A stretch of DNA of 64,000 nt, from the NCBI RefSeq assembly GCF_036588685.1, contig NC_086373.1, forward strand, positions 41,602,001 through 41,666,000, given 5' to 3'. The DNA comes from Mytilus trossulus. Its lineage: Eukaryota. Under the pieces are notes generated by a model. That model searched no databases. It was not told the origin of the DNA and saw only the letters and a list, made by a program, of their open reading frames with translations. Of the stretch, positions 5,807 through 50,534 are shown piece after piece (within the stretch, counting starts at the first letter, position 1; the number at the start of each line of letters is the position of its first letter). The position numbers and the translations under genes were made by a program.

Positions 5807-6988
5807 TCATGATGAGTATCCATTAGACAGTCTTCTTCTGCAAATTCTGTGACAATTAACAATGGCACAGTATCTGTTTGTTGAACAATCTCCATCACTA
5901 AAACAGTCGTTTTGGCAATCAATTTTTCCTCCTACCACTGACTGAGAAATGAATCCCAAACCTGAAGTACGTGCTGATTCACTACGTCTTGTAGAAGCAG
6001 TGTCTAGAACCAAACGCCCACCTCGTCTAGAACTGATTGAGTCAAGAATATCTGTACCTGTATGACCAGACACTCCATGGCCACTACCAATAGTTTCCAA
6101 ATGAGAATTTCTGGACAGATCCTCATTTCTGGCCAGACCAGATGAACCAATTCGGCTACCAGAGGTAAAATGATCATCATCGCCAGATAAAGCACGGGAC
6201 AAACCAATTGAAGAACCTCTTATGATTCCAGATACAGGGTTTCTGCCCCCAACAGTAGCCCTAGACAATCCTCTACCGGAAGATGACCCGTGTGTAATAA
6301 ATTCACTGCCTATTCCATGAGATGTTTCATCTCCTCTAAACATCTCCTCTTGATCCTGCTCGTCTATTTGCATCAATAACATCCAGTAAAGAAAGAGATC
6401 CCTCACCACGACGCCTGTTTATGTTTCTACCAACTGTGTGTTCGACCAGTAAAACCTTCTCCACTCCATGTCTATCCAATGCATGTTTGTCTGTGGGTGC
6501 ATATACTGTAAAATGAATATTTGACGTGTTATAATTTTCACAAATCTAGTAATTAAAAAAAAAACTTTTGTTGATACGTAGATACTAGGATAACTGATAT
6601 TTTTACCAATTTGATTACCATATTCTTTAGATGAAATGACTAGAATGTTATCAACTGCATGGAACGTACGATTTCAGGACAGATGTAGGCTCATACTGTA
6701 TAGTAAGCTAAAAAAGAGTCCACATGAGAAATATGAATCAATTAAAAAAAAAACAGAAAACGTTTTGTGAAATTTTCTTTTATGTATATACAGATTGTAG
6801 TAATAAACACTCTTATGTACAAAAATTATATCTTTTTGACAATTGTATTATGGTAAGGTATTGGGAATTTTGTATCTTAACACCCAAAATATTTTATAAA
6901 AACATTCTATAAACTCTCATTAAATTTACTTACCGGCTACTGTTATTGTGGTCAATGCCATTAAAATGAAAATGGTTTGGAATCTCAT
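5807..6988 (-). pseudogene. Gene A2, frameshifted paralog (exons 6988-6934 and 6505-5807)
   Basis: Signal exon MRFQTIFILMALTTITVA with GT donor; terminal exon is 699 nt (686+13) because AGAGGAGATG-TTT-AGAGGAGATG gives an immediate in-frame TAG after ...RRAGSRGDV. Confidence 0.85.
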
Positions 6989-7162
6989 CCTCTTTATAGT
7001 TTCTGAAAAATAACAGAATTAATGTTTTACGTTACTGGAATTTTGATGTGCACGTTTCTTATGATTTTTAATTACCTAGAGAAAGAATGTTTCGTTGAGT
7101 AAAGCAGGCAATCATTTTGAAAAATCATACTTAATTAAATTGTTTTAGAATGCCCTTTTCTT

Positions 7163-7422
7163 TTTTTCTTTTTTTCATCTTTAAAATTCCTTTATTTCCA
7201 TCAGTTGCTTGTTTCATTGTCTTCAACAAGTCCAAGCTCCTTGTGAAGAATACATATAAATTTCAATTCTATTATATATTAATAAATAAAACATCAATCT
7301 AATAAATGTTTCTTAACATTAACTAAAAAATTATCTTCTTTTAATTTCTTTGAATAATACATTCGTTTTGTAAATTCTCTTATGAATAGACAAAAAACAT
7401 CAAGTCTTTTCATTTTCTGATC
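7163..7422 (-). mobile_element. 260-bp retro-type insertion in intron 1 of A2
   Basis: 16-bp direct repeat agaatgcccttttctt at 7147-7162 and 7423-7438; A-rich 3' end on minus strand; absent from other class A introns. Confidence 0.65.
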
Positions 7423-7658
7423 AGAATGCCCTTTTCTTACAACTTCTTCATTTGCCTTCTATATCTTAAAATGCAATATTAACAGGTAGAAAATTTGGTA
7501 AGAATTCATATATTTGAACCATTTAGTATGTATTTTTTTATGCCTTTTCTAATTCCTCAATGAATTATTTCTTGTTTATCTGTGTTATATGTAATGTTCA
7601 TAGTTATTGCTATGTAAATCTAGCATTTTTATTTATAATACATATGTATATTTCTCAC

Positions 7659-7980
7659 CTTAGTATAAAACAATAGGAATAGTTTGTAATGAATATTGTT
7701 GTATTGCTTCAGAATTGTTCTTTTATACCGTATCCAATTTTTTTTCTAATAGTTGACATACACACAAGTAAATTTGGATATCAACCACAAATGATGAATT
7801 TGTTAATTATGTTTCAAACTTTTAAATGTCACAATGTCATTGTACTTTGCAGTCTTGGATTATGCTCATGTATAAAAAAAACAACTGTACTCAGTGTTAT
7901 TTTGTTTTCTTACTGCTGCACACACATTTGGCGTGATGTCATAATACACGTAGTCATTACGAAATATTATTTTGACTGAT
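7659..7980 (-). promoter_or_regulatory. A2 proximal promoter and non-coding exon 1
   Basis: TATAAAAG 7727-7720, TCATT initiator-like ~7690, donor AAG/GTGAG after 7659, TGTGGTT 7789-7783. Confidence 0.65.
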
Positions 7981-8312
7981 GAACAATATGGTTAAATATG
8001 CAAATTATTAATTTCGTTGCAATCAGAGACTTGCACAAACTATCCGAAAGCCTCCTATATCCTCATGGTTTAGACGTTCAAATGTTTTAAATGAAATTAC
8101 TTGAAAACCACTGTTTGATATTTTGTTCGAATGTGTTTTTTTTAAACACAGTAATTATTAAGACATAACTTACATAACACTGCTTGAGCTTATGCTTACA
8201 ACAAGGACGAGAACCATCCTTATTTGTAAACAAACTAGTAAACAATTTTGAAGAAAAAATAGTTTTGATGTATCTTGCATATCTCCTCCTCATGTTCCGT
8301 CATTGTTATGCT

Positions 8313-8338
8313 TGTTCATTAGGAATGTTATCACCAAT
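8313..8338 (-). repeat. Single unamplified monomer of the 26-bp promoter VNTR
   Basis: Reverse complement attggtgataacattcctaatgaaca with the same flanks as the three arrays. Confidence 0.85.
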
Positions 8339-8874
8339 CTAAAACTTCAAAAGAATTCACATCACTGTGTTAGGTTCTAAGTTACAAAACATTAATACTC
8401 ATAAGTGTTGTTTATATATAATCTACATATAAATCAACTCTAAAAGTTGTTTGATTTCTCAGTATCTTTTGGCTGTTGAAAACTTTTGGTTACATGATAG
8501 AATGGTTTACTTTTTCATTTTATAGAGAGAAAAATACAAAAGGAAACAGTATTCAAAACAAAACCTATTAAACTACATAAATTGCAGCACCAACCACTTC
8601 ATACCCCGGGGCGATCTCAGCTGCAAGTGAAAACTACTTTAACTAATCTAAGTAGATTTTACTCAATAATGACACAAAAACTGCCTGCACTGACTATTTG
8701 TACTATTGCATGTATTGAAAGATGATTGACTTTTTTTAATATAGAAACTACAAACACATATTGAATAAAACGGAAACGAAACTCAAAATACTCAAAATAT
8801 AAAAACTCCTATGTAAACTTCGATTTAAAATAAACAGATATCTAGTTCATTTATCACGTACATGTATCTTTATA

Positions 8875-9325
8875 AGGTGGCACGGTAGTATTTGCATTCC
8901 AGAATTTTGGTTGCTCTTTTGTGTACCCTTCCTTAGTGAATGTATCTGAACAGTGTGATTAAACAAAAAAAAAACAGTATCAACTGAATACACTTTCCCA
9001 AACTGAGGAATGAATCAGGTGTAGAAAAATATTAAATAATTTTACAAACAGATGAAAATGAATTTTTAAGAATTTAGTTTTTCAAATTGTGCATTCACTG
9101 CATGACAAAAAAAACCCGAAAGCACTAGAGGCCTTAGGTTTTTCTAAAAATAGCCAAAAAAGTAAACGGTCATGTATATACTATTCAAATTCATTTCTGA
9201 ATAGTAAAATGAAATTTCTTTTGTTAAGTGTGAATGTAGAATGTTTTGCAGTGTAAAAAAGTAGTGAAAATTCTAAAAAGGCCATCATTATGGCTTACGG
9301 GCCAGGAAATACTACCGTGCCACCT
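8875..9325. mobile_element. Old MITE with 19-bp TIR AGGTGGCACGGTAGTATTT in divergent spacer 1
   Basis: Perfect inverted repeat 8875-8893 / 9307-9325; non-coding interior. Confidence 0.7.
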
Positions 9326-10014
9326 ATAATATATATCAATGATAGTGCAATTGCTTTAGACCTGGTTTCATTTTCTTGGTTAGCAATACAAATAACTGTT
9401 TTAAACACCTTATACGTATTTAGTATGCAAACTGTTTGTTTTACATTGATTAGAAAAGAACGCCAGGCTAACATTTATGGAATACACAACACTGATGCAT
9501 AAAAGATTTATAGTGCATTCCATTTTTTCAATGTTACTTCAACAGAAATTTTAAATCCATATGCATAAAGGTAGATAAAACGATGTAAGCGTGTGATTTG
9601 AATTCTTGGAAGTGTTATTGTAAACCAAAGTACATATATAGGTTTAACATCTTGCTCACAGAAGATTATTTTTCACTGAGGCTTTTTTTATTTTATATAA
9701 TTTTAGCTTTTTCAAAATAATTGCGATCTATCTCCCCTTTTTATATGTGTTTGCCAATCGAATGGAAGCCATTTTTCCTCTGACAGGGCTTTTTCGTTAT
9801 TCATATGAGGCAGACTTTCAACAATAGCTTCTCAAAAAATTGTAAAGATACAAGAACTACGATTAACTTTAGATTTGATAATGTAAATTTGTGTTTTGTT
9901 GTCTTTCATTTTTACTTATTTGCTTTGTCTAATTCACGTTTTGTGCTTATATACTACATGTTTTCTTGTTTTTATATTGATTAACATTATAACACAACTT
10001 TTTTCTGATATTTT

Positions 10015-10230
10015 TACCTATGATATCTCATTGGTTTGTTCACACATCAATATAATGGAATTTGAAGCAACTGTCATACAAGTCAAACGTTTAACCAGCT
10101 ATGCAACAAGGTTTAATCCATCAGTTTCTGCAAAAGTAAAAGTTTGTACCAAGTCAGGAAAATATCAGTTGATATCCCTTTGTTTGATGCGTATGAGAAT
10201 TTGATTTTTCAATGGGATTAGGGACTTTTA
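10015..10230 (+). repeat. Interspersed repeat fragment with CCAAGTCAGGA core (also in the other three divergent spacers)
   Basis: Shares the core with repeats at ~20760-20885, 47489 and 60958. Confidence 0.5.
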
Positions 10231-10737
10231 GAGACGTTTTGTCCGCCTGAAATAATGAATTGAACACAAAATGTTACTACGGAACGAAAGAACAAGATAT
10301 TTTTACATATCAAAACTTAAGTTAAAATAAAATTTTACATTTCAGGACAAAATGTCGAGAGGCAACAAAAAAGGACATATTCTTTTTTTTTTTAACCCAA
10401 GATAAAACAGAGCCCAGATTTGACTCAACTTTGTTTCAATTTTTAGTTTTCCTTCAAAATTTGTTCCTTATATGTTATAGACTCAAGTTTATTTAATACT
10501 AGTAAACCGTTTGTAAACAAACCGCTAGTATTGTGTATATGTTTAAAATCCTAAAAAAGAAGAGTTTCCCAACGTCAACCAGTTCACCTTTAAGAGTGGT
10601 TTTCCAAGCAATTCAAAGAAATACTAATATCGTTTAAAAGGAAATAAAAGACTTCAGATTATTATTTTTTTTGTATTGTTCAAGTCTCTGGTTATTACCA
10701 AAACAGCCATCAATTTATTTGCAAACATTAATAATAG

Positions 10738-11045
10738 GTCAAAGCAATATTTCATAACACGTACATGTATTATGACGTAACGAAAACTATGTTGATTGTA
10801 TGAGGAAACAAAATGTGTTTTTGACCCTGAGAATATTTCTGTGAACATGTATTGCAATTCCTTAGTACTACGACAGTGTGACATTTAAAAATAAACAACG
10901 AATTCATCATTTGCGGTTAACTTTAAACTTTCCTTGTGTACATGTATATTATAAACAATATAATTGAAAACGAACGATATAAAAGAGCGATTTGGAGGCA
11001 ATAAACATTATTCATTAGAGATAATTCAAATTGATCCAAACAAAG
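10738..11045 (+). promoter_or_regulatory. B1 proximal promoter and non-coding exon 1
   Basis: TGCGGTT 10912-10918, TATAAAAG 10978-10985, TCATT ~11012, donor AAG/GTAAG after 11045. Confidence 0.65.
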
Positions 11046-11556
11046 GTAAGAAATTATTAAAGCAGAATCATAACTAATTGGTATTAATAAATAGGAAAGA
11101 AATAACTAAAATTAATGCAATAGTAACAAAGGTAGGAAATAAGTGATAAAAGATTTAGAAAATTGTATTTATAAAGTTTTAAGCCTGATGCATAGTTCAA
11201 TATTTTGGTTTTGATCTCAATAATTTGAATTTAGATTCAGTAACACAAAACTGCTTCAAACTATAATTTATTTTCATAACTTATATTTCCTGTGTTTAAA
11301 AATATATCAGACGTTTTATTCGGAATGAAATAATTATTGGAGGTATTCAAGTTAATAATGTTTTTTCTGCATTTGTAAATTGTGCGTATACATCCTATGT
11401 ATCTTTTTAATTTGTAATGTGAACCTAATTTCTCTGTTAAATCATATTGCATTTCTAAATTGAAACTTTATTTCCACAATTAACATTTCTCGTATTAAAA
11501 AATTTGAACTGCTATTTTGTATGTTACGATATTTTTCCTCTAAATTTCAGACTTGA

Positions 11557-12716
11557 ATGATGACATTCCAGACCATTTTCGTTTTGATGGCATTGGCCAC
11601 AATAACAGCAGCAGGTAAGAAAAATATGCAATGTGATTTAGTCGAAATTTATAAACTGTATCAAATAAAAGTGTTTTCATTATAAAATTAAAAAAAAAAA
11701 ACACAGAATGTTAAGATATTTCCAAAACCGAACAGTCTCTGCAATGGCTTACAACAACGTTCTTTTGCTGAAAGTGTGTGGTTGTTTAATTTGCGATAAT
11801 AATTGATATTATTGTATTGTTAAATAAAAAAAAATCACCAGGATTTTTTCGTGGTTTTGGTAAAGTCAACACTAATTACTTTAGAAAATTTGTTATTCGT
11901 TGATTATTTGAATTCGTGGTTCTCCTGTACCCATGAAATGTACGAAAACTGGTATCCAACGAATATTAATGAATCCACAGTAATCAACTCATGAAAATCA
12001 CATAAATTGTTAGATATTCAATATTTACAGTATATGCACCCTCGGATAAGCATGCAATAGACAGACATGGAGTGGAGAAAGTTTTACTGGTCGAAAACAC
12101 AGTTGGTAGAAACATAAACAGGCGTCGTGGTGACGGATCTCTTTCTGTACTGGATGTTATTGATGCAAATAGACGAGCAGGATCAAGAAATGTTGGAACA
12201 TCTCATGGAATAGGCAGTGAGTTTATTAAACACGGGTCATCTTCCGGTAGAGGATTGTCTGGAGCTTCAGTTGGTGGCAGGACCTCTGTATCTGGAAGCA
12301 TTAGAGGCTCTTCAATTGGTTTGTCCCGTGCTTTATCTGACGATGATGATCATTTCACGTCTGGTAGCCGAATAGGTTCATCTGGTCTGGCTAGAAATTT
12401 GGATCTGTCAAGAAACTCTCATTTGGAAACTATTGGTAGTGGCCATGGAGTGTCTGGTCATTCAGGTGCAGATATTCTTGACGCAATCAGTTCTGGACGA
12501 GGTGGGCGTGTTGTACTGGACACTGTTTCTTCCAGACGTAGTGTATCAGCACGTACTTCAGGTTCAGGATTCGTTTCTCAGTCATTGATAGGAGGAAAAA
12601 CTGATTGCAAAAACGACTGTTTTAGTGATGGAGATTGTCCAACAAACAGATACTGTGCCACTGTTAATTGTCACAGAATTTGCAGAAGAAGACTGTCTAA
12701 TGGATACTCATCATGA
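11557..12716 (+). CDS. Gene B1, secreted Gly/Ser-rich 6-Cys WAP-like protein, 247 aa (exons 11557-11614, 12031-12716)
   Basis: MMTFQTIFVLMALATITAA + phase-1 GT-AG intron + VYAPSDKHAIDRHG...; open to TGA. Confidence 0.9.
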
Positions 12717-13379
12717 AAAGCCTATTACCGAAATCCAGACTATGAAACTTTTTTTATATCTTTTTTAAAATAAAATATTGCATTCAGGTTTTGTTATTGT
12801 ATAGATTTTTCGTTATTTTATCAAAAATATTGACAGAGTCATTTGTCAAATAAAACGTATCAGAAAAAAATATAACAGCATACAGTCATAATTACAAATA
12901 TGAATAAAGATAACAAAAGCATACAGCAATTGAAAAAAATGTTCGGTGATTTGTTTAAATTACAGTAATTTGTAACACACAAAAAAACATAACAAAAACA
13001 ATTAAAATACTTTTTTCGCCGAAGCAAAGACAATTCCTTGTCAAGTTCTACATTGATTGGAATTCTGAAATAGCTACAAACATTCTTATAATTTTTATGT
13101 TGGATACCTGCTGATAGCTAGAAAACACGGAAAACTAACGATTTTCGTTACAAAAACAGATTAAGGGAAATACATTATAATAGAAATCTTTGATTGTAAA
13201 AAGAGGTATACATGGAACCTGAATTATAACATAAAAAGTATGAGGAAATATTTAGGGTGTGAAAATTGTTAACCATGGTAACCTTGGGAAATAATATGTT
13301 TATTTATAAATTGTTATATGTATACATTCATATAATCGGTCCTTAATATAAAAAGACATATGAACTAATTTTTATCTAA

Positions 13380-13954
13380 CTATGTGATAAAGATTTCAAT
13401 CATTGTTGAAGGTAGTTCTGGTGCGTATAGTTGTAAGTTTGTATATACTGAAAAATTAATTAATGATTAATTTAGGAAAAAAAAGAAATTGTATTTTATT
13501 TTTATTGAACAATACAATGATTTCAAGTATTATCGCCAATAAAACAACTACACATTCTATGCAAAGGGAAGTTGTTGTAAGCAATTGTAAAGAAAATTAC
13601 TGAACTCCGAAAAATAAATAAAAACCGAAAGTCACTAATCAAATGGCAAACTAAAATGATAAGACACATCAAGCGAATGGAAGAGACTGTTCGGTTTTGC
13701 AAATATCAGCTGTTTAAAAGAACATTATCTAGTAGGACATTAAAATTTTATTTAAACACAGATCACACTTGTATTTGATACAGTTTATAAAATTTCGAGA
13801 AAATCACATTGAACATTTTTTTCTTACCAGCTGCTGTTATTGTGGTCAATGTCATCATAACGAAAATGGCTAAATACATTGAACATTTTTCTTACCGGCT
13901 TCTGTAATTGTGATCAATGCCATCAAAAGGAAAAATGGTCGGAAATCTCATCAT
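13380..13954 (-). pseudogene. Class C fragment (subtype C2), broken
   Basis: Signal exon 13954-13896 has a +1 frameshift; duplicated partial exon 13869-13828; acceptor at 13447 followed by only TATAT of exon 3; no exon 1 or TATA. Confidence 0.75.
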
Positions 13955-14835
13955 TTCTAAGTCTAAAATTTAGAGGAAAAATATCGATATTAATAAAATA
14001 GCAGTTCAAATAATTTAATACGAATTATGCAAATCGTGAAAATTAAGTTTCAATCTTTAAATGCAATATGACTTTACAATGAAATTAGGTTAACATTACA
14101 AATAAGAAAGTTACATACATGTAGATGTATATTCACGAATTAACACATGCAGAAAAAGGAACTTTCATAACTTTCATTGATTGTCAAGTATAAGTATAAT
14201 ATATATATTTACTTTTACAGTATTTAAACTTAAAAACAAACATTACTTCGAATGATTAATAACTTGAATATATCAAATATTTATTTCATTCCAAATTAAA
14301 TATTCAATTTGTTTTAAATCACTGTTAACATCAGTTGTGAAAATGAATTATACTTTGTAGCATTATTGTGTTACTGTATGTTAATTTAATTTACTGAGAT
14401 TAATACCAAAATATTGAAGTATGCATAACGCTTTAAACTTTAAAAATCTAATTTTCTTAATCTTTTATAACTTACATGTATATCCTATCTTTGTTACTAT
14501 GGCATTAATTATAGTTGTTATATCTTTCCTATTTATTTAAACCAAAAAACCAACACAGAAAACGAAGGATTTTCGTTACAAAAACAGATTAAGGGAAAGA
14601 TATTAGCATAGAAATCTTTGAATATAAAATGAGGTATACATGAAACCTGAATTATAACATAAAAAGTTTGCGAAAATTATTAACCATGTTATGACAATAA
14701 TACATCAGTGTTCTTATTTCCAAAAGAGGCACTCAGCATATACAATTAATGTGTGCATGAAGGGACAGCAACTTGCTAAAAACTGAATGTTTTTATTACC
14801 ACAATTAATTATGTTTAATTGGAAAACAAATATAT

Positions 14836-15755: not shown

Positions 15756-18626
15756 GGCATTATGGTAAGATCATCAATGATCAGAGGTGGTTATGATGGG
15801 TAAATATTAATAATAGGCCTCTGTAACAAAATACATCTCTGGATTGAGCTTTTGTATAAGTGTATTATAATAACGCTATATAAACGCATTCTTTGTGAAA
15901 CACACAAATTTGACACACAACTCACAATTGCACATGACCTGGTGTAAGATGGTCACAACTGTGAGCACAATAAGTTGCATTCATTCGCTATAAGTATTTA
16001 TGGGAAGATTAAAGCATTTTGTTAACACTTAAACAAAACATTATTTTTCAATAAGCTAAATAAAGAAAGTACAAATTTGCCCAACACTGCTTGTGCTCCT
16101 GGAACTTTAGGTGGTTTTGTAAGACTTTTTTTTATAAATCATAGAAGAAATGTGCTGTCTATTGATGAGTCCAGAGTTTGAATAATCGTTCGCTTAAACA
16201 TAATAACTGATAATGTAATCTATTTTTTAATCCTTTTTTCCGTCAGTCCTGATCATAACTAACAAACTTTAAAAACAGTTTGAGAGGAGTTTTGGCATAT
16301 GATTACCGACATATTCTGTATATTTTTGTTTCTGAAAACAATAGTAAGTTTTCATAGAAACAATTACGATAATCTTTTACTTACGATAACATAAAGATAC
16401 TAACAAGTAAACAATTTTAAGTGGACACATTTAAAGAAATTAACACATCAAAGGAACATAATAAGAACTGTACAATACTACATGCTTACAGGTCCTAGGA
16501 TACGATCTAGCATATCATAATCACATCATACAGAAATGAACCTAATGTGATTCTCCTCTTATTTGCGTTTATGCTGCTATCCAAAATCAAAATTGTTGAA
16601 ATTTTTTTATTGGAATCATTCAGAAATAGTTACAATCTTCTGCTTCTTCAAGTAAATCTCCCCAGAGATGGAGCACACTCTGCTTGCTGTGTCCAATTAC
16701 GGATTAGTTTTCAAAATGATGAATATATTAAAAAAGAAATTATTCCAAAGTTAAAATGATGAAAGGTAAGCCCAAAATGGAACATTGCACGTTCACAAAA
16801 TTAAATTACAGGAAAGTACATATCTATATTTACGACGCACTCAACGCACGTTGGCCAATATATAGTTTTTATATTAAAAGCACTGTCTAACTAAATAAAA
16901 TCTATGAATGGTGGCACTGATTTAAATTAGTGTCTGCTCCATGACAGTCTTGAAGATTGAATAAGAAACATTGCTTTTTTAGTGTTTGGTACAGTATTGT
17001 TGTCACTATAAACCACAGTTTAACATAGAACCCTATACAGAAAAACCAGAAACAGAAAACACAATCAAATCTATGAACGGTTGCATTGCACTGATTTAAA
17101 TTAGTGTCTCCTCCATGACAGTCTGGAACATGACATAAAAGACACTGCTCTTTCAGTGTTTGGTCCAGTTTTGCTGCCACTGTGCACTACATGTACAGTT
17201 CAACATAGAACCCTATGTGAGAAAACCAGGAACCTCTTTATGTCAGAAAAACTATCAAACCCCCAAACAAACTATCAACACTAATTTGTATATATCTTTT
17301 ATATATCTTTAAAGCCCGTTGATGGACGATCTTTTTTAATCTATGATAAGCATAACACATAATCTAAACTCTATTTATTGATATTGATCGATTGTTGTTT
17401 ACAGACTTCAGCTACAAATATAATTTTGTCTTCTTCAGTGAAATAAAATAAAAATGTATGTGTCATACATTGTACAATAAAATGATAGAGGCGTAACTTA
17501 ATTATGAAGAGCTATTCTTTTTTCATGATATGAAAGACTACATATTTGTGTTCAAACACATACAATGATGGATACTATGAAATTTCAATAAAAAAAGTGA
17601 TCGGGTCAGGTAAGGTAGTTATCAAACATGAGACCTATAAGAGTGCACAGGGAACACTTTTACCTGTCAAATTAATAAAGATATAAGATATGGAATGATT
17701 ACCGATAAAACAAATATCCATCATACACGTAACAATGTTGAAAGTTACAACTATACGCATCAGAATTACCTTCAACAATGATTGAAATCTATATCACATA
17801 GTTAGATAAAAAAATAGTTCATATGTCTTTTCATATTAAGGACCGACCATATGAATGCATACATATAAAAATTTACAAATAAATATATCATTTCCCAAGG
17901 TAAACATGGTTAATAATTTTCGCATACTTTTTATGTTATGATTCAGGTTTCATGTATACCTCAATTTATAATCAAAGATTTCTATGCTAATATCTTTCCC
18001 TTAATCTGTTTTTGTAACGAAAATCGTAAGTTTTCGGTGTTGGTTTTTTGGATTAAATAATTAGGAAAGATAAAACAAATAAAATTAATGCCATAGTAAC
18101 AAAGATGGGATATAAATGAAGTTATAAAAGATTAAGAAAATTGGATTTATAAAGTTTAAAGCGTTATGCATATTTCAATATTTTGGTATTGATCTCAGTA
18201 AATTAAACTAAGATACAGTGACAAAATACTGCTACAAAATATAATTAATTTTCATAACTGATGTCCACTGTGATTTAAAATTTTTTGAATATTTAATTTG
18301 GAATGAAATAATAAATTGAGATTTTCAAGTTATTAATCATTCGAATACATGTTTGTTTTTAAGTTTAAATACTGTAAAAGTAAATATATATATTATACTT
18401 GACAATCAATGAAATTGATGAAAGTTCCTTTTTCTGCATTTGTTAATTCGTGAATATACATTATATGTATCTTTCTTATTTGTGATGTGAACTTAATTTC
18501 TCTGTAAAATCATATTGCATTTAAAGATTGAAACTTAATTTTCACGATTTACATATTTCGTATTAAATTGTTTGACCTGCTATTTTGTTAATAACGATAT
18601 TTTGCCTCTAAATTTAAGACTTAGAA

Positions 18627-19152
18627 ATGATGAAATTTCCGACCATTTTCGTTTTGATTGCGTTGATAACAATAACAGTAGATGGTAAGAAAAGTGTTCA
18701 ATGTGTTTTTCTCGAAATTTATAAACTGTATCAAATAAAAGTGTGTTCAGTGTGTAAATAACATTTGAATGTCCTACTAGAGAATGTTCTTTAAAACAGC
18801 TGATTTTTGCAAAACCGAACAGTCTCTTCCATTCGCTTGATGTGTTTTATCATTTTAATTTGCCATTTGAATAGTGACTTTCGGTTTTGAATTTTCTTCG
18901 GAGTTCAGTACTTTTCTTTAGAATTGCTTACATCACCATCCCTTTGCGTAGAACGTATAGTTGTTTTATTGGAGATAACTCATGAAATCATTGTATTGTT
19001 CAATAAAAATAAATTACAATTTTTATTTTTTCTAAATTAATCATTAATTAATGTGTGAATATAACATAAATTGTCAGATCTTTAATTTAACAGTATATGC
19101 GTTAGATAGACAAACTTACATCTATATTCACCAGAATTACCTTCAACAATGA
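18627..19152 (+). pseudogene. Class C fragment (C1a) with intact 38-aa spliced micro-ORF (exons 18627-18684, 19094-19152)
   Basis: MMKFPTIFVLIALITITVD/VYALDRQTYIYIHQNYLQQ*; GT-AG intact; family promoter and exon 1 missing. Confidence 0.6.
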
Positions 19153-35823: not shown

Positions 35824-36141
35824 GTCAAAATAATATTTCGTAATAACTACGTGTATTATGACATAATGCCAAATGTGTGTGTAGTAGGAAGAAAACGAAA
35901 TAACCCTGAGTACAGTTCTTTTTTTTTTAAATAAGCATAATCCAAGACTGCAAAGTAAAATGACATTGTGACATTTAAAAGTTTGAACCATAATTTACAA
36001 ATTCATCATTTGTGGTTAATATACAAATTTCCTTGTGTGTATGTCAACTATTAGAAAAAAATTTGAATACGGTATAAAAGAACGATTCTGAAGCAATATA
36101 ACAATATTCATTACAAACTATTCCAATTGTTTTATACTAAG
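35824..36141 (+). promoter_or_regulatory. A4 proximal promoter and non-coding exon 1
   Basis: TGTGGTT 36011-36017, TATAAAAG 36073-36080, donor AAG/GTAAG after 36141. Confidence 0.65.
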
Positions 36142-36542
36142 GTAAGAAATATACATATTTATTAAAAATAAAAATGCTAGATACACATCGCAATAACTAT
36201 GAAAATTTAACACATCTAACACAGATAAACAAGACATAATTCATTGAGGACTTAAAAAAAGGCATCAATAAATTTTTACATACTATATGGTACAAATATT
36301 TTAATTCTAAGTAAATTTTCTGTATGTTAAAAAAAATCATTTAAATTGAAAGAAATCAAATGAGGAAGTTGTAAGAAAAAAGCATTGTAAAACAATTTAA
36401 TAAGTATGGTTTTTCAAAGTGATTGCCTGATTTACTCAACGATTCATTCTTTCTTTAAGTAATTGAAAATCAAGAGACACATGCACATCTAAATTCCAGT
36501 AACGTAAAACATTAATTCTGTTTTTTTTCAGAAATTATAAAG

Positions 36543-37721
36543 ATGATGAGATTCCAAACCATTTTCATTTTAATGGCATTGACCACAATTACAGTAGCTG
36601 GTAAGTAAATTTACTGTGGGTTTATAGTATGTTTTTATAAAAAAAAATTGGGTGTTGAGATACACAATTCCCAATACCTTACCATAATACAATTTTTAAA
36701 AAGATATAATTTCTGTACATAAGAGGGTTGATTACTAACATCTACATATGTTTGTATACATAAAAGAAAAATTCACAAAAAGTTTTCTGTTTTTTTAAAT
36801 TGATTCATATTTGTCATGTGGAGTCTTTTATAGCTTTCTATACAGTATGAGCCTACATCTGAGCTGAAATCGTACGTTCCCTGCAGTTGAAATCATTCTG
36901 GTCATTTCATTTAAAGTTTATTGTAATCAAATTGGTAGAAATACCAGATTTTCTAATATCTACGTATCAACAAAAGTTGTTTTTTTATTGTTTTGTATTG
37001 CTAAATTGGTGAAAATTATAACACGTCAAATACTAATTTTACAGTATATGCACCAACAGACAAACATGCATTAGACAGACATGGAGTAGCAAAATATTTG
37101 CTGGATGAACACACAGTTGGAAGAAACATAAACAGGCGTCGTGGTGACGGATCTCTTTCTGTACTGGATGTTATTGATGCAAATAGACGAGCAGGATCAA
37201 GAAATGTTGGAACATCTCATGGAATAGGAAGCGAGTTTATTACACACGGGTCATCTTCCGGTAGAGGATTGTCTGGAGCTTCAGTTGGTGGCAGGACCTC
37301 TGTATCTGGAAGCATTAGAGGCTCTTCAATTGGTTTGTCCCGTGCTTTATCTGACGATGAAGATCAGTTCAAGTCTGGTAGCCGAATTGGTTCATCTGGT
37401 CTGGCTAGAAATTTGGATCTGTCAAGAAATTCTCATTTGGAAACTATTGGCAGTGGCCATGGAGTGTCTGGTCATTCAGGTGCAGATATTCTTGACGCCA
37501 TCAGTTCTGGACGTGTTGTACTAGACACTGTTTCTGCCAGACGTAGTGGATCAGCACGTACTTCAGGTTCAGGACTCGTTTCTCAGTCAGTGCTAGGAGG
37601 AAACACTGTTTGCAAAAACGACTGTTTTAGTGATGGAGATTGTCCAACAAACAGATACTGTGCCACTGTTAATTGTCACAGAATTTGCAGAAGAAGACTG
37701 TCAAATGGATACTCATCATGA
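36543..37721 (+). CDS. Gene A4, secreted Gly/Ser-rich 6-Cys WAP-like protein, 244 aa (exons 36543-36600, 37045-37721)
   Basis: Open frame; terminal exon 677 nt because of an in-frame 9-nt deletion (SSGRVV vs SSGRGGRVV). Confidence 0.9.
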
Positions 37722-40700: not shown

Positions 40701-41330
40701 TTTCCCTTAATCTGTTTTTGTAACGAAAATCGTAAGTTTTCGGTGTTGGTTTTTTGGTTAAAACAAATAGGAAAGATACAACAAATATAATTAATGCCAT
40801 AGTAACAAAGATAGGATATAAATGAAGTTATAAAAGATTAGGAAATGGATTTATAAAGTTTAAAGCGTTATGCATATTTCAATATTTTGGTATTGATCTC
40901 AGTAAATTAAATTAAGATACAGTAACACAATACTGCTACAAAATATAATTAATTTTCATAACTGATGTCCACTGTGATTTAAAATTTTTTGAATATTTAA
41001 TTTGAAATGAAATAATAACTTGAGATTTTCAAGTTATTAATCATTCGAATAAATGTTTGTTTTTAAGTTTAAATACTGTAAAAGTAAATATATATATTAT
41101 ACTTGACAATCAATGAAAATGATGAAAGTTCCTTTTTCTGCATTTGTTAATTCGTGAATATACATCCTATGTTTCTTTCTTATTTGTGATGTGAACCTAA
41201 TTTCTCTGTAAAATCATATTGCATTTAAAGATTGAAACTTAATTTTCACGATTTACATATTTCGTATTAAATTGTTTGACCTGCTATTTTGTTAATAACG
41301 ATATTTTGCCTCTAAATTTAAGACTTAGAA

Positions 41331-41858
41331 ATGATGAGATTTCCGACCATTTTCATTTTGATTGCATTGATAACAATAACAGTAGCCGGTAAGAAAAGTG
41401 TTCAATGTGTTTTTCTCGAAATTTATAAACTTTATCAAATAAAAGTGTGTTCAGTGTGTAAATAACATATGAATGTCCTACTAGAGAATGTTCTTTAAAA
41501 CAGCTGATATTTGCAAAACCGAACAGTCTCTTCCATTCGCTTGATGTGTTTTATCATTTTAATTTGCCATTTGAATAGTGACTTTCGGTTTTGAATTTTC
41601 TTCGGAGTTCAGTACTTTTCTTGAGAATTGCTTACAACAACATCCCTTTGCATAGAATGTGTAGTTGATTTAATCGGAGATAACACATGAAATCATTGTA
41701 TTGTTCAATAGAAATAAAATACAATATTTATTTATTTCTAAATTAATCATTAATTAATAAGTGAATATAACATAAATTGTCAGATCTTTAATTTAACAGT
41801 ATATGCGTTAGATAGACAAACTTACAACTATATGCACCAGAATTACCTTCAACAATGA
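41331..41858 (+). pseudogene. Class C fragment (C1b) with intact 38-aa spliced micro-ORF (exons 41331-41388, 41800-41858)
   Basis: MMRFPTIFILIALITITVA/VYALDRQTYNYMHQNYLQQ*; no family promoter. Confidence 0.6.
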
Positions 41859-42541: not shown

Positions 42542-44261
42542 TCATGATGAGTATCCATTTGAAAGTCTTCTTCTGCAAATTCTGTGACAATTAACAGTGG
42601 CACAGTATCTGTTTGTTGGACAATCTCCATCACTAAAACAGTCGTTTTTGCAATCAGTTTTTCCTCCTATCACTGACTGAGAAACGAATCCTGAAGCTGA
42701 GGTACGTGTTGATCCACTACGTCTTGCAGAAACAGTGTCTAGTACAACACGCCCACCTCGTCTAGAACTGATTGCGTCAAGAATATCTGCACCTGAATGA
42801 CCAGACACTCCATGGCCACTACCAATAGTTTTCAAATGAGAATTTCTTGACAGATCCAAATTTCTAGCCAGACCAGATGAACTAATTCGGCTACCAGACG
42901 TGAAATGATCATCATCGTCAGATAAAGCACGGGACAAACCAATTGAAGAGCCTCTAATGCTTCCAGATACAGAGGTCCTTCCACCAACTGAAGCTCCAGA
43001 CAATCCTCTACCGGAAGATGACCCGTGTGTAATAAACTCACTACCTATTCCATGAGATGTTCCAACATTTCTTGATCCTGCTCGTCTATTTGCATCAATA
43101 ACATCCAGTACAGAAAGAGATCCGTCACCACGACGCCTGTTTATGTTTCTACCAACTGTGTTTTCGACCAGTAAAACTTTCTCCACTCCATGTCTGTCTA
43201 ATGCATGCTTATCCGAGGGTGCATATACTGAAAAAATTGAATATCTGACAATTTATGTGATTTTCATGCGTTGATTAATTGGAAAAAAAATACTGAAACC
43301 TCAAATCAAAAAAAATAATGCATATGTTTTTTATAACTCAATGGATAGTTTTCATTATAAAACTTATGTACATATACTTTTTTCTGAAGAAAATTCTTAA
43401 ATTTATTCATATTTAGAAGAAGTTTACTTAATTTTAATTGCTTGCTTCCAGCAACCAATTCCCCCGACATATTTTCCGTATGCAAAGTGACCTCAGTGTG
43501 ACCCATCTCGTAAAAATCCGGTGATCACAATACGCATGGATGTCCTTAAAATAAACTATTATCTGAATTCACATGTTAAACACGTGCTCTCTTTCCATGC
43601 TTTTTTTGTTTATTTTTTGTCTATTGTTGACAAACAGGTGACCATCGTTAAACTTCGGCTTCGAAATACGAACTTTAATTACCTGCCATATTTACACAAC
43701 AACACTGACCGATTGAAAAAAAAATTTGACGATTATACGAAATTTACACGAAAAAAATGATAAATTCGTGCACAGAAGACTATGTTTATGATGTGTGTAT
43801 GCATTGGTTCAAGAAATGGAAGAACATATTTTTTCACCGGTCACTCGTTTCTTTTGACTTTAACAATACAATAATAACAATTATTATCGCCAATAAAACA
43901 ACTACACAATTTTAGCAAAAGAACGTTGTTGTAAGGCATTGCAGAGACCGTTCGGTTTCGGAGATATCTGACATTCTTTGTTAATTTTTTTTAAATGTTA
44001 TCTACACAAGGAAAAAGTAAAATCACAAAAAAATGAACTCAGAGGAAAATCAATTAGGAAAGTCTATAATCACATGGAAAAATCAAATAACAAAACGCAT
44101 CAAAAACGAATGGACAAGAACTGTCATATTCCTGATATAGGAAACACCTTTATTTGATACAGTTTACATATTTCGACTAAAACACATTGAACATTTTTCT
44201 TACCGGCTGCTGTTATTGTGGCCAATGCAATCAAAACGAAAATGGTCTGGAATGTCATCAT
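42542..44261 (-). CDS. Gene B4, secreted Gly/Ser-rich 6-Cys WAP-like protein, 247 aa (exons 44261-44204, 43227-42542)
   Basis: Canonical splice sites; open frame; intron 2 enlarged by an insertion. Confidence 0.9.
43296..43859. mobile_element. One-ended DNA-transposon fragment in B4 intron 2
   Basis: Absent from B2/B3; right end ...tttcttttgact abuts TTAA (a TTAA is present at the B3 empty site); left end and adjacent flank deleted. Confidence 0.65.
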
Positions 44262-44479
44262 TCAAGTCTGAAATTTAGAGGAAAAATATCGTTACTTACA
44301 AAATAGCAGTTCAAATAATTTAATAACGAATTATGTAAATTGTGGAAATAAAGTTTCAATTTAGAAAATTAATGCAATATGATTCAACAGAGAAATAAGT
44401 TCACATTACAAATTAGAAAGATACATAGGATTTATATTCACATTTTACAAATGCAGAAAAAGGAACTTGCATAACTTGC

Positions 44480-44584
44480 TTGTCCATTCGTTTTGGATGC
44501 GTTTTGTTTTTTGATTTTGCCATGTAATTATGGACTTTCGAAATTGATTTTCCTCTGAGTTCGGTATTTTTGTGATTTTACTTT
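44480..44584 (+). mobile_element. ~105-bp interspersed repeat inserted in B4 intron 1, inverted relative to the copy at ~44012-44118
   Basis: Empty site ataacttgcattgattg in B2/B3; TTGC duplicated at the ends. Confidence 0.75.
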
Positions 44585-44985
44585 TTGCATTGATTGTCAA
44601 GTATAAGTATAAGATAAACATATATCTTAACAGTATTCAAACATAAGAACAAAATATTACTTCGAATGATTAATAACTTGAATATCTTCATTATTTATTC
44701 CATTCCAAATTAAACGTCTGATAGATTTTAAAACACAGTAAATATTAGTTATGAGAATAAATTATACTTTGAAGTAGTATTGTGTAACTGAATCTAAATT
44801 CAAATTGCTGAGATCAAAACCAAAATATTGAACTATGCATCACGCTTAAAACTGTATAAATACAATTTTCTAAATCTTTTATTACTTATTTCATATCTTT
44901 TTTACTATGGCATTAATTTTAATTGTTATATCTTTTCTATTTATTTATACCGAATAGTTATGATTCTTCTTTTATAATTTCTTAC

Positions 44986-45300
44986 CTTTGTTTGGATCAA
45001 TTTGAATTATTTCGAATGAATAATGTTTACTGCCTCAAACTCGCTCTTTTATACCGTTCGTTTTCAATTATATTGTTTATAATACACATGAACACAAGGA
45101 AAGTTTAAAGTTAACCGCAAATGATGAATGCATTGTTTATATGTGCATTTTTAAATGTCACACTGTCGTAGTACTAAGGAATTGCAATATATGTTCACAG
45201 AAATTTTCTCAGGGTCAAAAACACATTTTGTTTCCTCGTACAATCGACATAGTTTTCGTTACGTCATAATACATGTACGTGTAATGAAATATTGCTTTGA
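44986..45300 (-). promoter_or_regulatory. B4 proximal promoter and non-coding exon 1
   Basis: TATAAAAG 45053-45046, donor after 44986, TGCGGTT 45119-45113. Confidence 0.65.
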
Positions 45301-46737
45301 CCTATTATTAATGTTTGCAAATAAATTGATGGTATGTTTAGTAATAAGCAGAGACTTGAACAATACGAAACAAATAAAAATAAAGTGAAGTCTTTTATTT
45401 CCTTTTAAACAATATTAGTATTTCTTTGAATTGCTTGGAAAACCACTCTTAAAGGTTAACTGGTTATCGTTGGAAAACTCTTCTATTTTTTTTCAGAATT
45501 TTAAACATATACACAATACTAGCGGTTTGTTTGCTAACGGTTTACTAGTATTAAATAAACTGGAGTCTATAACATATAAGTAACAAATTTTGAAGGAAAA
45601 CTAAGAATTAAAACAAAGTTGAGTCAAATCTGGACACCGTCAGTTATATCTTGGGTTAAAAAAAAGAATATGTCCGTTTTTGTTTGTCCTGAAATGTAAA
45701 ATTGCAGACAATTATCTTTCATTTTAACTTAAGTTTTGAGATATCAAAATACCTTGTTCTTTCGTTCCGTATTAACTTTTGGTGTTAAATATATTTTTTT
45801 TTAGGCGGACAAAACGTCTCTTAAGTCGCTTATCCCATTGAAAAATCAAAAGCTCATACGCATCAAACAAGGGGATATCCACTGGTATATTCCTGACTTG
45901 GTACAAGCATTTTCTTTTGCAGAAACTGATAAATTAAACCTTGTTACATAGCTGGCTAAACCTTTCACTTGTATGACAGTTGCATCAAATTCCATATTAT
46001 TGACAACGATGTGTGAACAAACCAATGAGATATCACAGGTAAAAATATCAGAAAAAAGTTGTGTTATAATGTTAATCAATTTACAACAAGAAAATATGTA
46101 CTAGTAGTATATAAGCACAAAACAAGATATAAACAAAGCACGTAAGCAAACATGAAAGACAAGAAAACACCAATTTACATTATCAAATTTTAAGTTAAAA
46201 GTAGTTCTTGTATCTTTACAATTTTCTTGAGAAGCTATTGTTTAAAGTCTGCCTCATATGAATAAAGAAAAAGCCCAATCAGAGGAAAAATAGCTTCCAT
46301 TTGATTGTCAAACACAAATAAAAAAGGGAGATAGATCGCAATTATTTTGAAAAAGCCAACATTATATAAAATAGAAATAAGCCTAAATGAAAAATATTCT
46401 TCTTTGAGCAAGATGTTAAACCTATATATGTACTTTGGTTTACAATAACACTGCAAAGAATTCAAATAACACGCTTACATCGTTTTATCTACCTTTATGC
46501 ATATGGATTTAAAATTTCTGTTGAAGTAACATTGAAATAATGAAATGCACTATAAATCTTTTATGCACCAGTGTTGTGTATTCCATACTTGTTAGCCTGG
46601 CGTTCTTTTCTAATCAGTGTAAAACAAACAGTTTGCAAACTTAATATTTATAAGGTGTTTAAAAAAGTTATGTGTAGTGCTAACCAAGAAAATTGAACCA
46701 GGTCTAAAGCAATTGCATTATCATTGATATATATTAT

Positions 46738-47056
46738 AGGTGGCACGGTAGTATTTCCTGGCCCGTAAGCCATAATAATAGCCTTTTTAGAATTTGGACT
46801 ACTTTTTAACACTGCAAAACATTCTACATTAACACTTAACTAAAGAAATATCATTTTACTATTCAGAAATGAATTTAAAATAGTATCATGGCCGTTTACT
46901 TTTCTTGCTATTTTTCTGATCCTTTTTCCAGTTTGGGAAAGTGTGTTCAGTTTATACCGTTTTTCTGTCTAATCACACTGTTCAGATACATTGACTTAGG
47001 TAGGGTACACAAAAGAGCATCCTAAATTCTGGGATGCAAATACTACCGTGCCACCT
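46738..47056. mobile_element. Old MITE (AGGTGGCACGG TIR), spacer 4 copy with internal deletion
   Basis: Both TIRs intact; ~120 bp shorter than the sister copies. Confidence 0.7.
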
Positions 47057-47488
47057 TATAGCGATACATGAGAAATGAACTAGATATTTGTTTATTTTAA
47101 ATCGGAGTTTACATAGGAGTTTTTATATTTTGAGTAATGTCAGTTTCGTTTCCGTTATATTCAATATTTGTTTGTAGTTTCTGTATTAAAAAAGTCAATC
47201 ATCTTTCAATACATGCAATAGTACAAATAGTCAGTGCAAGCAGTGTTTGTGTCATTATTAAGTTAAATCTACTTAGATGAGTTAAAGTAGTTTTCACCTG
47301 AGATGACCCCAGGATATAAAGTGGTTGGTGCTGCAATTTGTGTAGTTTAATAGGTTTTGTTTTGTATACTGTTTCCCTTTAGTTTTTTTTTAAATCCGCG
47401 ATGAAAATGAAAAAGTATACCATTCTATCATGTAACCAATAGCCAAAAGATATTGCGAAATTCATACAAATAATAAAATTCATACAAA

Positions 47489-47763
47489 CTAAGTCAGGAA
47501 TCTGATGTACAGTAGTTGTCGTTTGTTTATGTAATATATACGTGTTTCTCGTTTCTCGTTTTGTTAATATAGATTAGACCGTTGGTTTTCCCGTTTGAAT
47601 GGTTTTACACTAGTAATTTTGGAGCCCTTTATAGCTTGTTGTTCGGTGTGAGCCAAGGCTCCGTGTTGAAGGCCGTACTTTAACCTATAATGGTTTTATT
47701 TTTAAATTGTTATTTGGATGGAGAGTTGTCTCATTGGCACTCACACCACATCTTCCTATATCT
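47489..47763 (+). mobile_element. Short interspersed repeat insertion specific to spacer 4
   Basis: Absent at ~34845; ends ttgtctcattggcactcacaccacatcttcc like 60958-61252 and 63750-63940. Confidence 0.7.
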
Positions 47764-47869
47764 AAATAGTTTATTTATATGTAGATTATATATACTCAAC
47801 ACTTATGAGTATTAATGTTTTGTAACTTAGAACCCTACACAGTGATGTGAATATCTTTTCAATTTATAG

Positions 47870-48311
47870 ATTGGTGATAACATTCATAATGAACAATTGG
47901 TGATAACATTCATAATGTACAATTGGTGGTAACATTCATAATGAACAATTGGTGGTAACATTCATAATGAATAATTGGTGATAACATTCATAATGAACAA
48001 TTGGTGATAACATTCATAATAAACAATTGGTGGTAACATTCATAATGAACAATTGGTGGTAACATTCATAATGAATAATTGGTGATAACATTCATAATGA
48101 ACAATTGGTGGTAACATTCACAATGAACAGTTGGTGATAACATTCATAATGAACAATTGGTGATAACATTCATAATGAACAATTGGTGATAACATTCATA
48201 ATGAACAATTGGTGATAACATTCATAATGAACAATTGGTGATAACATTCATAATGAACAATTGGTGATAACATTTATAATGAACAATTGGTGATAACATT
48301 CATAATGAACA
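47870..48311 (+). repeat. 26-bp promoter VNTR, 17 copies
   Basis: 442 bp = 17 x 26; several units have GGTAA in place of GATAA. Confidence 0.95.
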
Positions 48312-48654
48312 ATCATAACAATGACGGAGTATGAGGAGGAGATATGCAAGATACATTAAAACTATTTTTTCAAAATTGTTCAATAGTTTGTTTTCAAAGA
48401 AGGATGGTTCTCGTCATTTTTGTAAGCATAAGCTCAAGCAGTGTTAAATAAGATATATCTTAGTAATTACTGTGTTAAAAAAAAACATTCGAACAAAATA
48501 TCAAGCAGTGGTTTTCAAGTAAATTTCATTTAAAAGATTTAAACGTCTAAACCATGCGGAAATAAAAGGCTTTCGGATAGGTTTTGTTAAAAATGTACAA
48601 GTCTCTGATTACAACGAAATTAATAACTTGCAATTTGAACCATATTGTCGATCA

Positions 48655-48958
48655 GTCAAAATAATATTTCGTAATAACTATACGTGTGTTATGACATAAT
48701 GGCAAATGTGTGTGTAGTAGGAAGAAAAGGGGTACATTTTTTTTTTATACATAAGCATAACCCAAGACTGCAAAGTAAAATGACATGGTGACTTTTAAAA
48801 GTTTGAACCATAATTAACAAATTCATCATTTGTGGTTGATATACAAATTTCCTTGTGTGCATGTCAACTATTAGAAAAAAATAATTGAATACGGTATAAA
48901 AGAACGATTCTGAAGCATTACAACAAAATTCATTACAAACTTATTGTTTTATAGTAAG
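48655..48958 (+). promoter_or_regulatory. A5 proximal promoter and non-coding exon 1
   Basis: TGTGGTT 48831-48837, TATAAAAG 48895-48902, donor AAG/GTAAG after 48958. Confidence 0.65.
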
Positions 48959-49358
48959 GTAAGAAATATACATATTTATTAAAAATAAAAATGCTAGATA
49001 CACAAAGCAGTACTTATGAAATTTAACACATATAACACAGATAAACAAGAAATAATACATTGAGGAATTTAAAAAAGGCATCAATAAATTTATACAAACT
49101 AAATAGTACAAATATTTCAATTCTAACTAAATTTTCTGAATGTTAAAAATTGCATTTAAAGTGATAGGAGGCAAATGAAGAAGTTGTAAGAAAAAAGCAT
49201 TGTAAAACAATTTAATTAAGTATGGTTTTTCAAAATGATTGCTTGTATTACTTAACGATTCATTCTTTCTTTAAGTAATTGAAAATCAAGAGACACATGC
49301 ACATCTAAACTCCAGTAACGTTAAACATTAATTCTGGTTTTTTTCAGAAATTATAAAG

Positions 49359-50534
49359 ATGATGAGATTCCAAACCATTTTCATTTTAATGGCATTGACC
49401 TCAATAACAGTAGCTGGTAAGTAAATTTACTGTGGGTTTATAGTATGTTTTTATAAAAAAAAAATGGGTGTTGAGATACAAAATACCTTACCATAATACA
49501 ATTTTCAAAAAGATATAATTTCTGTACATAAGAGGGTTAATTACTAACATCTACATATGTTTGTATACATAAAAGAAAAAATCACAAAAAGTTTTCTGTT
49601 TTTTTTTTAATTGATTCATATTTGTCATGTGGAGTCTTTTAAAGCTTACTATACAGTATGAGCCTACATCTGTCCTGAAATCGTACGTTCCCTGCAGTTG
49701 ATTACATTCTAGTCATTTCATTTTAAGTTTAAGGTAATCAAATTGGTAAAAATACCACATTTTCTAATATCTACGTATCAACAAAAGTTTTTTTTTTTGT
49801 ATTACTAGATTTGTGAAAATTATAACACGTCAAATATTCATTTTACAGTATATGCACCAACAGACAAACATGCATTAGACAGACATGGAGTAGCAAAAGT
49901 TTTGCTGGATGAACACACAGTTGGAAGAAACATAAACAGGCGTCGTGGTGACGGATCTCTTTCTGTACTGGATGTCATTGATGCAAATAGACGAGCAGGA
50001 TCAAGAAATGTTGGAACATCTCATGGAATAGGAAGCGAGTTTATTACACACGGGTCATCTACCGGTAGAGGATTGTCTGGAGCTTCAGTTGGTGGCAGGA
50101 CCTCTGTATCTGGAAGCATTAGAGGCTCTTCAATTGGTTTGTCCCGTGCTTTATCTGATGATGATGATCAGTTCACGTCTGGTAGCCGAATTGGTTCATC
50201 TGGTCTGGCTAGAAATTTGGATCTGTCAAGAAATTTTCATTTGGAAACTATTGGTAGTGGCCATGGATTGTCTGGTCATTCAGGTGCAGATATTCTTGAC
50301 GCACTCAGTTCTGGACGAGGTGGGCGTGTTGTACTAGACACTGTTTCTGCCAGACGGAGTGGATCAGCACGTACTTCAGGTTCAGGAGTCGTTTCTCAGT
50401 CAGTGCTAGGAGGAAACACTGTTTGCAAAAACGACTGTTTAAGTGATGGAGATTGTCCAACAAACAGATACTGTGCCACTGTTAATTGTCACAGAATTTG
50501 CAGAAGAAGACTGTCAAATGGATACTCATCATGA
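49359..50534 (+). CDS. Gene A5, secreted Gly/Ser-rich 6-Cys WAP-like protein, 247 aa (exons 49359-49416, 49849-50534)
   Basis: MMRFQTIFILMALTSITVA/VYAPTDKHALDRHG...; open frame. Confidence 0.9.

Follow-up and report, generated by a model that had tools for sequence, protein, structure and literature searches.

A 64,000-nt stretch of the Mytilus trossulus genome (G000:C1:41,602,001-41,666,000; hereafter the window) carries part of an array of head-to-head gene pairs, in each of which a gene with an A-type 5′ end is joined to a gene with a B-type 5′ end. In our view this is probably an array of nine such pairs with old, distinct promoter ends, which arose by inverted duplication and were copied as a unit, and in which gene conversion overwrote exon 3, the large coding exon. 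We read 344 kb around the window, and coordinates outside 1-64000 continue the window numbering.

Four pairs, A2(-)/B1(+), B2(-)/A3(+), B3(-)/A4(+) and B4(-)/A5(+), lie in the window, with TATA boxes 3251, 3755, 3779 and 3842 bp apart, respectively. They are present where an initial annotation had placed them. Its spacers of 3.3-3.9 kb were indeed homologous, but their range in the window is about 3.25-3.85 kb, and its count of four is valid only within the window: the flanking DNA adds five pairs (Am2/Bm2, Am1/Bm1, B0/A1, B5/A7 and B6/A8, with TATA boxes 2912, 3253, 1946, 5045 and 5494 bp apart), including that of A1 at the window start with B0 upstream of it, to give nine pairs in ~117 kb. 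All nine combined one A-type and one B-type promoter, and the paired part of the array held no solitary full gene. The first pair in the window was flipped relative to the other three, as previously described, with 5519-14690 aligning in inverted orientation to 17903-27356 (81%). A crossover inside exon 3 was rejected as the origin of this flip; B1 retains a B-type relic downstream, and therefore the whole unit was inverted. All 44 best-scored genome matches of exon 3 fell within one ~270 kb stretch of the same contig, in a search of the 1.3 Gb genome that scored only the best candidates, and the family amounted to about 25-30 copies and fragments in ~280 kb.

The gene plan consisted of a TATAAAAG box, a donor ~60-70 nt below it (untranslated exon 1), an exon 2 of 55-58 nt encoding a signal-peptide-like stretch, and an exon 3 of 686 nt, for a product of about 247 amino acids; exon 1 and the start sites were inferred from sequence. 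Across the six core A and six core B genes, mean A-B identity was lowest in intron 1 (52%), intron 2 (54%) and upstream (57%), and higher in exon 1 (73%) and exon 2 (86%). In exon 3, A genes were as similar to B genes (92.5%) as to each other (92.0%), and the same was seen in the first 290 nt past the stop (A-B 89%, A-A 88%). Synonymous divergence (dS) in exon 3 was 0.178 for A-B (63 pairs), 0.167 for A-A (21) and 0.127 for B-B (36), and thus silent sites are shared too. Moreover, only 2 of 674 columns of exon 3 were diagnostic of class versus 51 of 249 in intron 1 (7 A and 9 B genes). In 50-nt bins, A-B identity stood at ~50% in intron 2, reached ~80% where exon 3 begins, and was 90-100% farther along, up to ~720 nt past the stop. 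Mature proteins were 88.5% identical between A and B (54 pairs), 88.3% among A (15) and 91.5% among B (36), and hence there are no distinct A and B protein classes of the kind known from silkmoth chorion genes. The division into A and B gene classes proposed earlier thus stands upstream of about nt 100 of exon 3 and fails for the rest of the coding exon, and A and B are classes of 5′ ends only.

We found that the nine spacers were collinear from the B side to the A side. Those of the four pairs in the window were homologous end to end, mostly 85-95% identical, and the Am1/Bm1 and A2/B1 spacers were 96% identical to each other. The A and B promoters also aligned with each other in opposite orientation. 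Specifically, none of 200 shuffles reached the observed score at 0-125 or 125-250 bp above the TATA box in any of the five pairs tested, in agreement with the alignable ~250 bp noted initially, and the alignment extended through 250-350 bp in four of the five (at most 2 of 200 shuffles); no homology better than 13 of 200 shuffles was detected beyond 350 bp in these pairs. Together with the A/B split in the tree of promoter and exon 1 (support 100/100), this bears out the suggestion that the pair originated in an older inverted duplication. The proposal of a single shared divergent promoter was not supported. Each of the 18 paired genes had a TATA box of its own and, upstream, one common set of blocks in a fixed order. 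All 14 invariant blocks (at least 7 nt, across the nine spacers) lay at most 340 bp from a TATA box, and the B0/A1 spacer lacked ~1.3 kb of the middle relative to A2/B1 with both reading frames intact. Because of these features, each pair is best described as having two promoters, full copies of ~350 bp set 1946-5494 bp apart, and not the short common region of the chorion type.

Two blocks were kept in both promoter classes, TG(C/T)GGT ~65 bp above the TATA box (e.g., 10900-10920) and ATGAC(A/G)T at about -205 (e.g., 10765-10785). The variable base of each tracked the A/B class, and B0 deviated at the former block. By consensus, we take the first to resemble a Runx site and the second a bZIP (CRE-type) site, as leads only. 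Additionally, some blocks in the spacer middle were 66-82% identical in two outer pairs and therefore leave room for a shared enhancer. Co-regulation of A and B through duplicated promoter motifs or such an enhancer is plausible on this evidence.

The pair itself is the unit that was copied, as the initial annotation held, because the spacers are homologous, four of them (A2/B1 and three others) contain a dispersed repeat at corresponding positions, and the same main groups emerged on both sides. The six core pairs (100/100) and the sister relationship of Am1/Bm1 and A2/B1 (100/100) were recovered in trees of the 5′ modules from the A side and from the B side alike, while the order among the four other core pairs differed; the outer pairs are taken up below. 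A relic B-type 5′ fragment, comprising intron 1 and the signal-peptide exon, faced the tail of six B genes, from which it follows that the copied unit includes the 3′ flank. The relic was doubled in three copies, and its signal-peptide exon kept frame and donor in several; no exon 1, TATA box or exon 3 was found in these fragments.

The idea that the pairs keep A and B dosage linked fared less well. A2 carried a 13-nt insertion in exon 3 (near 6330-6345) that shifts the frame, with a stop after 74 codons, and is likely a pseudogene, while its partner B1 is intact; A6 lacked a promoter and exons 1 and 2. Both cases speak against dosage linkage, as does the equal similarity of mature proteins within and between classes, which differ consistently at one residue. 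Once pairs lie in tandem, in-register unequal crossing-over would return whole pairs wherever it falls, and therefore intact pairs are no proof of dosage selection. Cassettes of the chorion kind, with one bidirectional promoter, separate A and B products and a ratio held by selection, would account for the regular A-B composition of all nine pairs, for the missing lone full genes and, via possible shared enhancers, for the similar middle blocks of two outer pairs. Yet the paired TATA boxes lie 1.9-5.5 kb apart with separate motif sets, B0 and A1 are intact without the missing middle, mature A and B proteins differ no more than A proteins do from each other, and A2 and A6 are broken and promoterless, respectively; we regard this explanation as improbable.

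The history of exon 3 differed from that of the 5′ ends. The 5′ classes (promoter, untranslated exon, signal-peptide exon and introns) split nine against nine (plus one), while exon 3 occurred in a long form with a second six-cysteine module and a short form without it. The long form was present in Am2, A7 and the unpaired Am3 (A-side promoter), that is, in two of nine paired A genes, and the short form in all nine B and seven of nine A genes, always with the same deletion junction between two internal repeats. Two outer pairs therefore place a long two-module A beside a short B, differing by one module. The exon 3 tree united the 16 short genes (100/98), and the approximately unbiased (AU) test rejected a single A clade (p=0.0005). 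Moreover, identity of A1, A4 and A5 with core B genes was 82-87% over the first 100 nt of exon 3 and 93-96.5% beyond, and these three were closer to core B genes than Am1, A2 and A3 are.

Among the hits returned from other mussels, which do not represent whole genomes, the short form was seen only in M. trossulus, M. edulis and M. galloprovincialis, with several short-form proteins predicted in the latter two. M. californianus and M. coruscus together gave 20 hits, which had two or three modules or were cut at the other end; none had the short form. A8 had a promoter sister to that of long Am2 (Am2L; 99/98), yet a short exon. Likewise, the predicted M. edulis protein P0005 had a short body preceded by the Am2L signal peptide (19 of 19 residues), while P0023 and P0032, also gene predictions, carried the Am2 signal peptide on a long body.

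These observations indicate that gene conversion likely overwrote exon 3 between partners. The sequence of events would have begun with one gene duplicated in inverted orientation, each copy with a full TATA promoter. One copy, probably B, would then have dropped an internal cysteine module through recombination between the two internal repeats, and the short exon would have been copied into A genes, probably more than once. Pairs and 3′ flanks would have been amplified by tandem and inverted duplications, with in-register unequal crossing-over keeping pairs whole without dosage selection.

Several results weigh against this reconstruction. The three outer pairs gave conflicting, well-supported splits between the A-side and B-side trees, such that strict co-inheritance fails. 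When restricted to the seven short A genes, the AU test was borderline (p=0.032 for the whole of exon 3, 0.0505 from nt 100 on), a B clade was not rejected (p=0.116), and one A/B-diagnostic residue persists at mature position 5. When 63 A-B pairs were put to a run test, a single tract (A8-Bm2, raw p=0.0005) withstood correction for that number of tests. The A genes did not resemble their own partners most closely, so that arm-to-arm conversion is at best possibly ongoing in this one genome; consequently, most transfer predates the latest pair duplications. The direction, probably B to A, is the more economical reading and thus a parsimony argument. M. trossulus is highly heterozygous, and the copy number rests on one assembly.

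An account without conversion, in which the short A genes are one-off chimeras of an A 5′ end and a duplicated B exon 3 with its 3′ flank, multiplied afterwards as part of the pair, would have the same outcome for the product. A6 shows that exon 3 and its flank can duplicate alone, few discrete tracts were detected, and the 3′ flanks of long A genes did not align clearly past the tract, such that a second exchange point is at most putative; no A-specific flank could be made out clearly past the tract amid dispersed repeats. However, short exons stand behind at least two A promoter lineages (A8 and the core six), and the greater proximity of A1, A4 and A5 than of Am1, A2 and A3 to core B genes would need repeated transfer, so we hold chimeras to be about as improbable as the chorion-like cassettes. 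Finally, it is very improbable that exon 3 likeness reflects purifying selection only, or that the array is partly an assembly artefact. In favour of this reading, nonsynonymous divergence (dN) was below dS (~0.06 versus ~0.18), A6 differs from its source at 3 of 3697 bases, and two spacers are 96% identical. Against it, A and B have silent sites and as much as 720 nt of 3′ flank in common beside introns near the alignment limit, selection leaves the common deletion junction unexplained, most pairs differ by 5-15% with many indels, and several short-form proteins are also predicted in two other species.

Returning to conversion of exon 3 within copied pairs, the likely net effect is a single kind of secreted protein made at raised dose from two promoter types. 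A further step, which we put forward as speculative and rather doubtful, is that selection keeps one A-type and one B-type promoter per cassette (for a different tissue, stage or stress response), while conversion keeps the product uniform and sweeps the module-deleted exon through the A genes of the blue-mussel complex. Such a sweep would be unfixed between species, because the same signal peptide precedes a long body here and a short body in the predicted M. edulis protein. If true, a domain loss would have been caught spreading by gene conversion.

With respect to the protein, B1 exon 3 matched P0001, an uncharacterised M. trossulus protein, at 100%, and we recovered 66 relatives, 64 of them named Mytilus proteins and two without a name. 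The domain plan comprised a signal peptide, a disordered Ser/Gly/Arg region (the mature B1 chain is 18% Ser, 15% Gly and 11% Arg) and a six-cysteine module resembling WAP domains, with the pattern C-x3-C-x5-C-x5-C-x4-C-x3-C. The WAP four-disulfide core has eight cysteines in four disulfides (PMC11767717). The module here has six, and the Pfam WAP model (PF00095) scored 16.5-16.6 bits, below its cut-off of 20.8. In an AlphaFold model of the three-module relative P0064, built on a 29-sequence alignment, mean predicted local distance difference test score (pLDDT) was 41 overall and 82-89 in the terminal module. The top hits of that module in two fold searches were the WAP proteins SLPI, omwaprin and 6atu, with weak scores (Z 4.3, 4.1 and 4.0; root-mean-square deviation 2.9, 2.4 and 2.7 over 34-35 aligned residues; Foldseek E 0.3-2.7), and the ESM Atlas gave no usable hit. 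A sequence search of the PDB yielded nothing but designed Kelch repeats, whose matches were sums of weak stretches and were dismissed as spurious. The two cysteines absent relative to WAP domains are, we presume, partners in the WAP pairing, which would leave a three-disulfide WAP-like fold.

The predicted product is a disordered chain, rich in Ser, Gly and Arg, that carries a WAP-like module with three disulfides, and it is likely secreted. It shares with WAP proteins (SLPI and omwaprin, crustins, perlwapin and lustrin A) its top fold hits and a weak Pfam match, and, with glycine-rich crustins (PMC11767717), a signal peptide, a low-complexity region and a terminal cysteine module. It differs in cysteine number, in sub-threshold and weak scores, and in that all 66 relatives recovered are from Mytilus or unnamed. 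A role in extracellular matrix or surface defence, for example in foot or mantle secretion, is a guess to which we give roughly even weight. In another mussel, WAP-like proteins are enriched in foot and mantle rim (PMC5549309), and shell matrices contain them as well (PMC5854119); the passages concerned do not name the present family. No published description of the family or array was found in a search of paper listings and the beginnings of abstracts, mostly from outside subscription journals, and tissue or proteome tables that name these proteins may exist.

Coordinates of the genes, spacers and relics are compiled in Table 1.

Table 1. Genes, spacers, relics and related features of the paired array, in window numbering
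Feature	Position	Strand	TATA box	Exon 1 end	Exon 2 (signal-peptide exon)	Exon 3	Remarks
Relic outside window	~5.9 kb upstream						Locus L006
A1 exon 3	19..704	+				19..704	Exons 1-2, promoter and partner B0 just upstream of window
A2	5807..7727	-	7727	7659	6988-6934	6505-5807	
A2/B1 spacer	7728..10977						3251 bp; two outward-facing paralogous ~350-bp proximal promoters, middle non-palindromic
Dispersed high-copy repeat	8850..9300						In A2/B1 spacer; contig depth there high
B1	10978..12716	+	10978	11045	11557-11614	12031-12716	247 amino acids; intact
A/B shared tract (B1 example)	12130..13440	+					From ~nt 100 of exon 3 to ~720 nt past stop
Relic facing B1 tail	13765..14546	-					Intron 1 and doubled signal-peptide exon
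Relic facing B2 tail	18047..18744	+					
B2	19835..21692	-	21692	21625	21009-20952	20520-19835	247 amino acids
B2/A3 spacer	21693..25446						3755 bp; 26-bp tandem array 24277-24860
A3	25447..27078	+	25447		25913-25970	26393-27078	247 amino acids
Relic facing B3 tail	28686..29378	+					
B3	30459..32294	-	32294	32227	31611-31554	31144-30459	247 amino acids
B3/A4 spacer	32295..36072						3779 bp; 26-bp tandem array 34952-35473
A4	36073..37721	+	36073	36141	36543-36600	37045-37721	244 amino acids
Relic facing B4 tail	40753..41448	+					
B4	42542..45053	-	45053	44986	44261-44204	43227-42542	247 amino acids
B4/A5 spacer	45054..48894						3842 bp; 26-bp tandem array 47870-48313
A5	48895..50534	+	48895	48958	49359-49416	49849-50534	247 amino acids
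A6 block	53314..57010	+					3697-bp tandem copy of 49617-53313, 3 differences; exon 3 only, stop at 54231
B5 remnants	62041..63582						Relic 5′ fragment (+), 62041-62669, and B-type 3′ flank (-); B5 gene just beyond window

The exon 1 donor of A3 was not found with the pattern used, the B5 gene is intact, and the A6 block may be a very recent duplication or an assembly artefact. Splicing was sought in contigs from runs that we only guessed to be RNA, many contigs being <95% alike and perhaps from sister species. Joints of the B-type intron 2 were seen in two of the four runs of a first set (X1 and X5) and a joint of the A-type intron 2 (439 nt, GT..AG, matching A1) in one of the four runs of a second (X12). 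No exon 1 joint was seen in contigs of seven different runs, and two raw-read runs yielded 0 and 1 reads. The distribution of exon 2 joints, A-only in X12 and B-only in X1, X2 and X5, was not used, as contigs show presence and not absence.

For the dispersed repeat, 40 of 857 genome candidates were scored, four of which lay in this array and the rest on eight other contigs; elsewhere in the genome it formed tandem units ~1670 bp apart on several contigs. In three pairs, the 26-bp tandem arrays (17-22 copies) lay ~600 bp above the A TATA box; the A2/B1 and Am1/Bm1 spacers had none. A 51-bp tandem array (14835-15756; 18 copies, 98% matches) occupied the middle of the B1-B2 inverted junction, and long open reading frames there were discarded as its artefacts. 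Unrelated tandem arrays at 57878-58295 and 59451-60089 (182-bp and 66-bp units) separated the A6 copy from the B5 flank. An inverted repeat of ~420-440 bp (75% identity) at 50949-52741 and 54646-56438, inside the duplicated 3.7-kb block, is possibly a DNA transposon remnant. Finally, loci L017-L024 (G000:C1:41,767,000-41,848,000) held an older family branch with three cysteine modules, arranged mostly head to tail as five minus-strand copies followed by one facing the opposite way, such that pairing is not the rule there, and a broken two-module copy near 41,768,000.

Comparable arrangements are known from insects. The HcA and HcB chorion genes of Bombyx mori lie head to head, 330 nt apart, on a common promoter, within an array with reversed pairs, interspersed pseudogenes and proposed gene conversion (PMC4639761). 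The mussel array likewise repeats a divergent pair as its unit, with some pairs reversed, pseudogenes and proposed conversion, and a small signal exon precedes a large exon in both. It differs in that 1.9-5.5 kb separate its paired TATA boxes, each of which has a complete copy of the promoter, and in that chorion A and B are distinct branches of a protein family whereas here the mature protein is nearly the same. In Drosophila Amy genes the coding sequence is homogenised while flanks evolve independently (PMC3924832), and in dipteran hsp70 clusters an inverted pair is the basic unit (PMC3071340). As in Amy-p/Amy-d and Hsp70Aa/Ab, the mussel genes are linked, mirror-image paralogs with an inverted pair as unit, and with coding sequence homogenised at silent sites too beside diverged upstream DNA and introns. 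Unlike those systems, the mussel array has a pair amplified to nine copies and a shared tract that starts inside a coding exon, leaving the signal-peptide exon and introns class-specific, extends into the 3′ flank and has transferred the deletion of an entire module between classes.

The comparison points to an array that works like the Amy and Hsp70 pairs, amplified nine-fold on a chorion-like array of pairs. The mechanisms are already known, and the array gives no sign of regulation of a new kind. It offers a clear example from nature of pair-wise amplification, as in chorion, together with conversion of inverted paralogs limited to coding sequence, as in Amy and Hsp70, which are usually seen apart. 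Two unconverted pairs of long A and short B stand in one array with seven converted pairs, which allows the states before and after conversion to be compared and a spreading domain deletion to be traced across three sister mussel species. Moreover, the array flags an unstudied, Mytilus-restricted family of likely secreted proteins.

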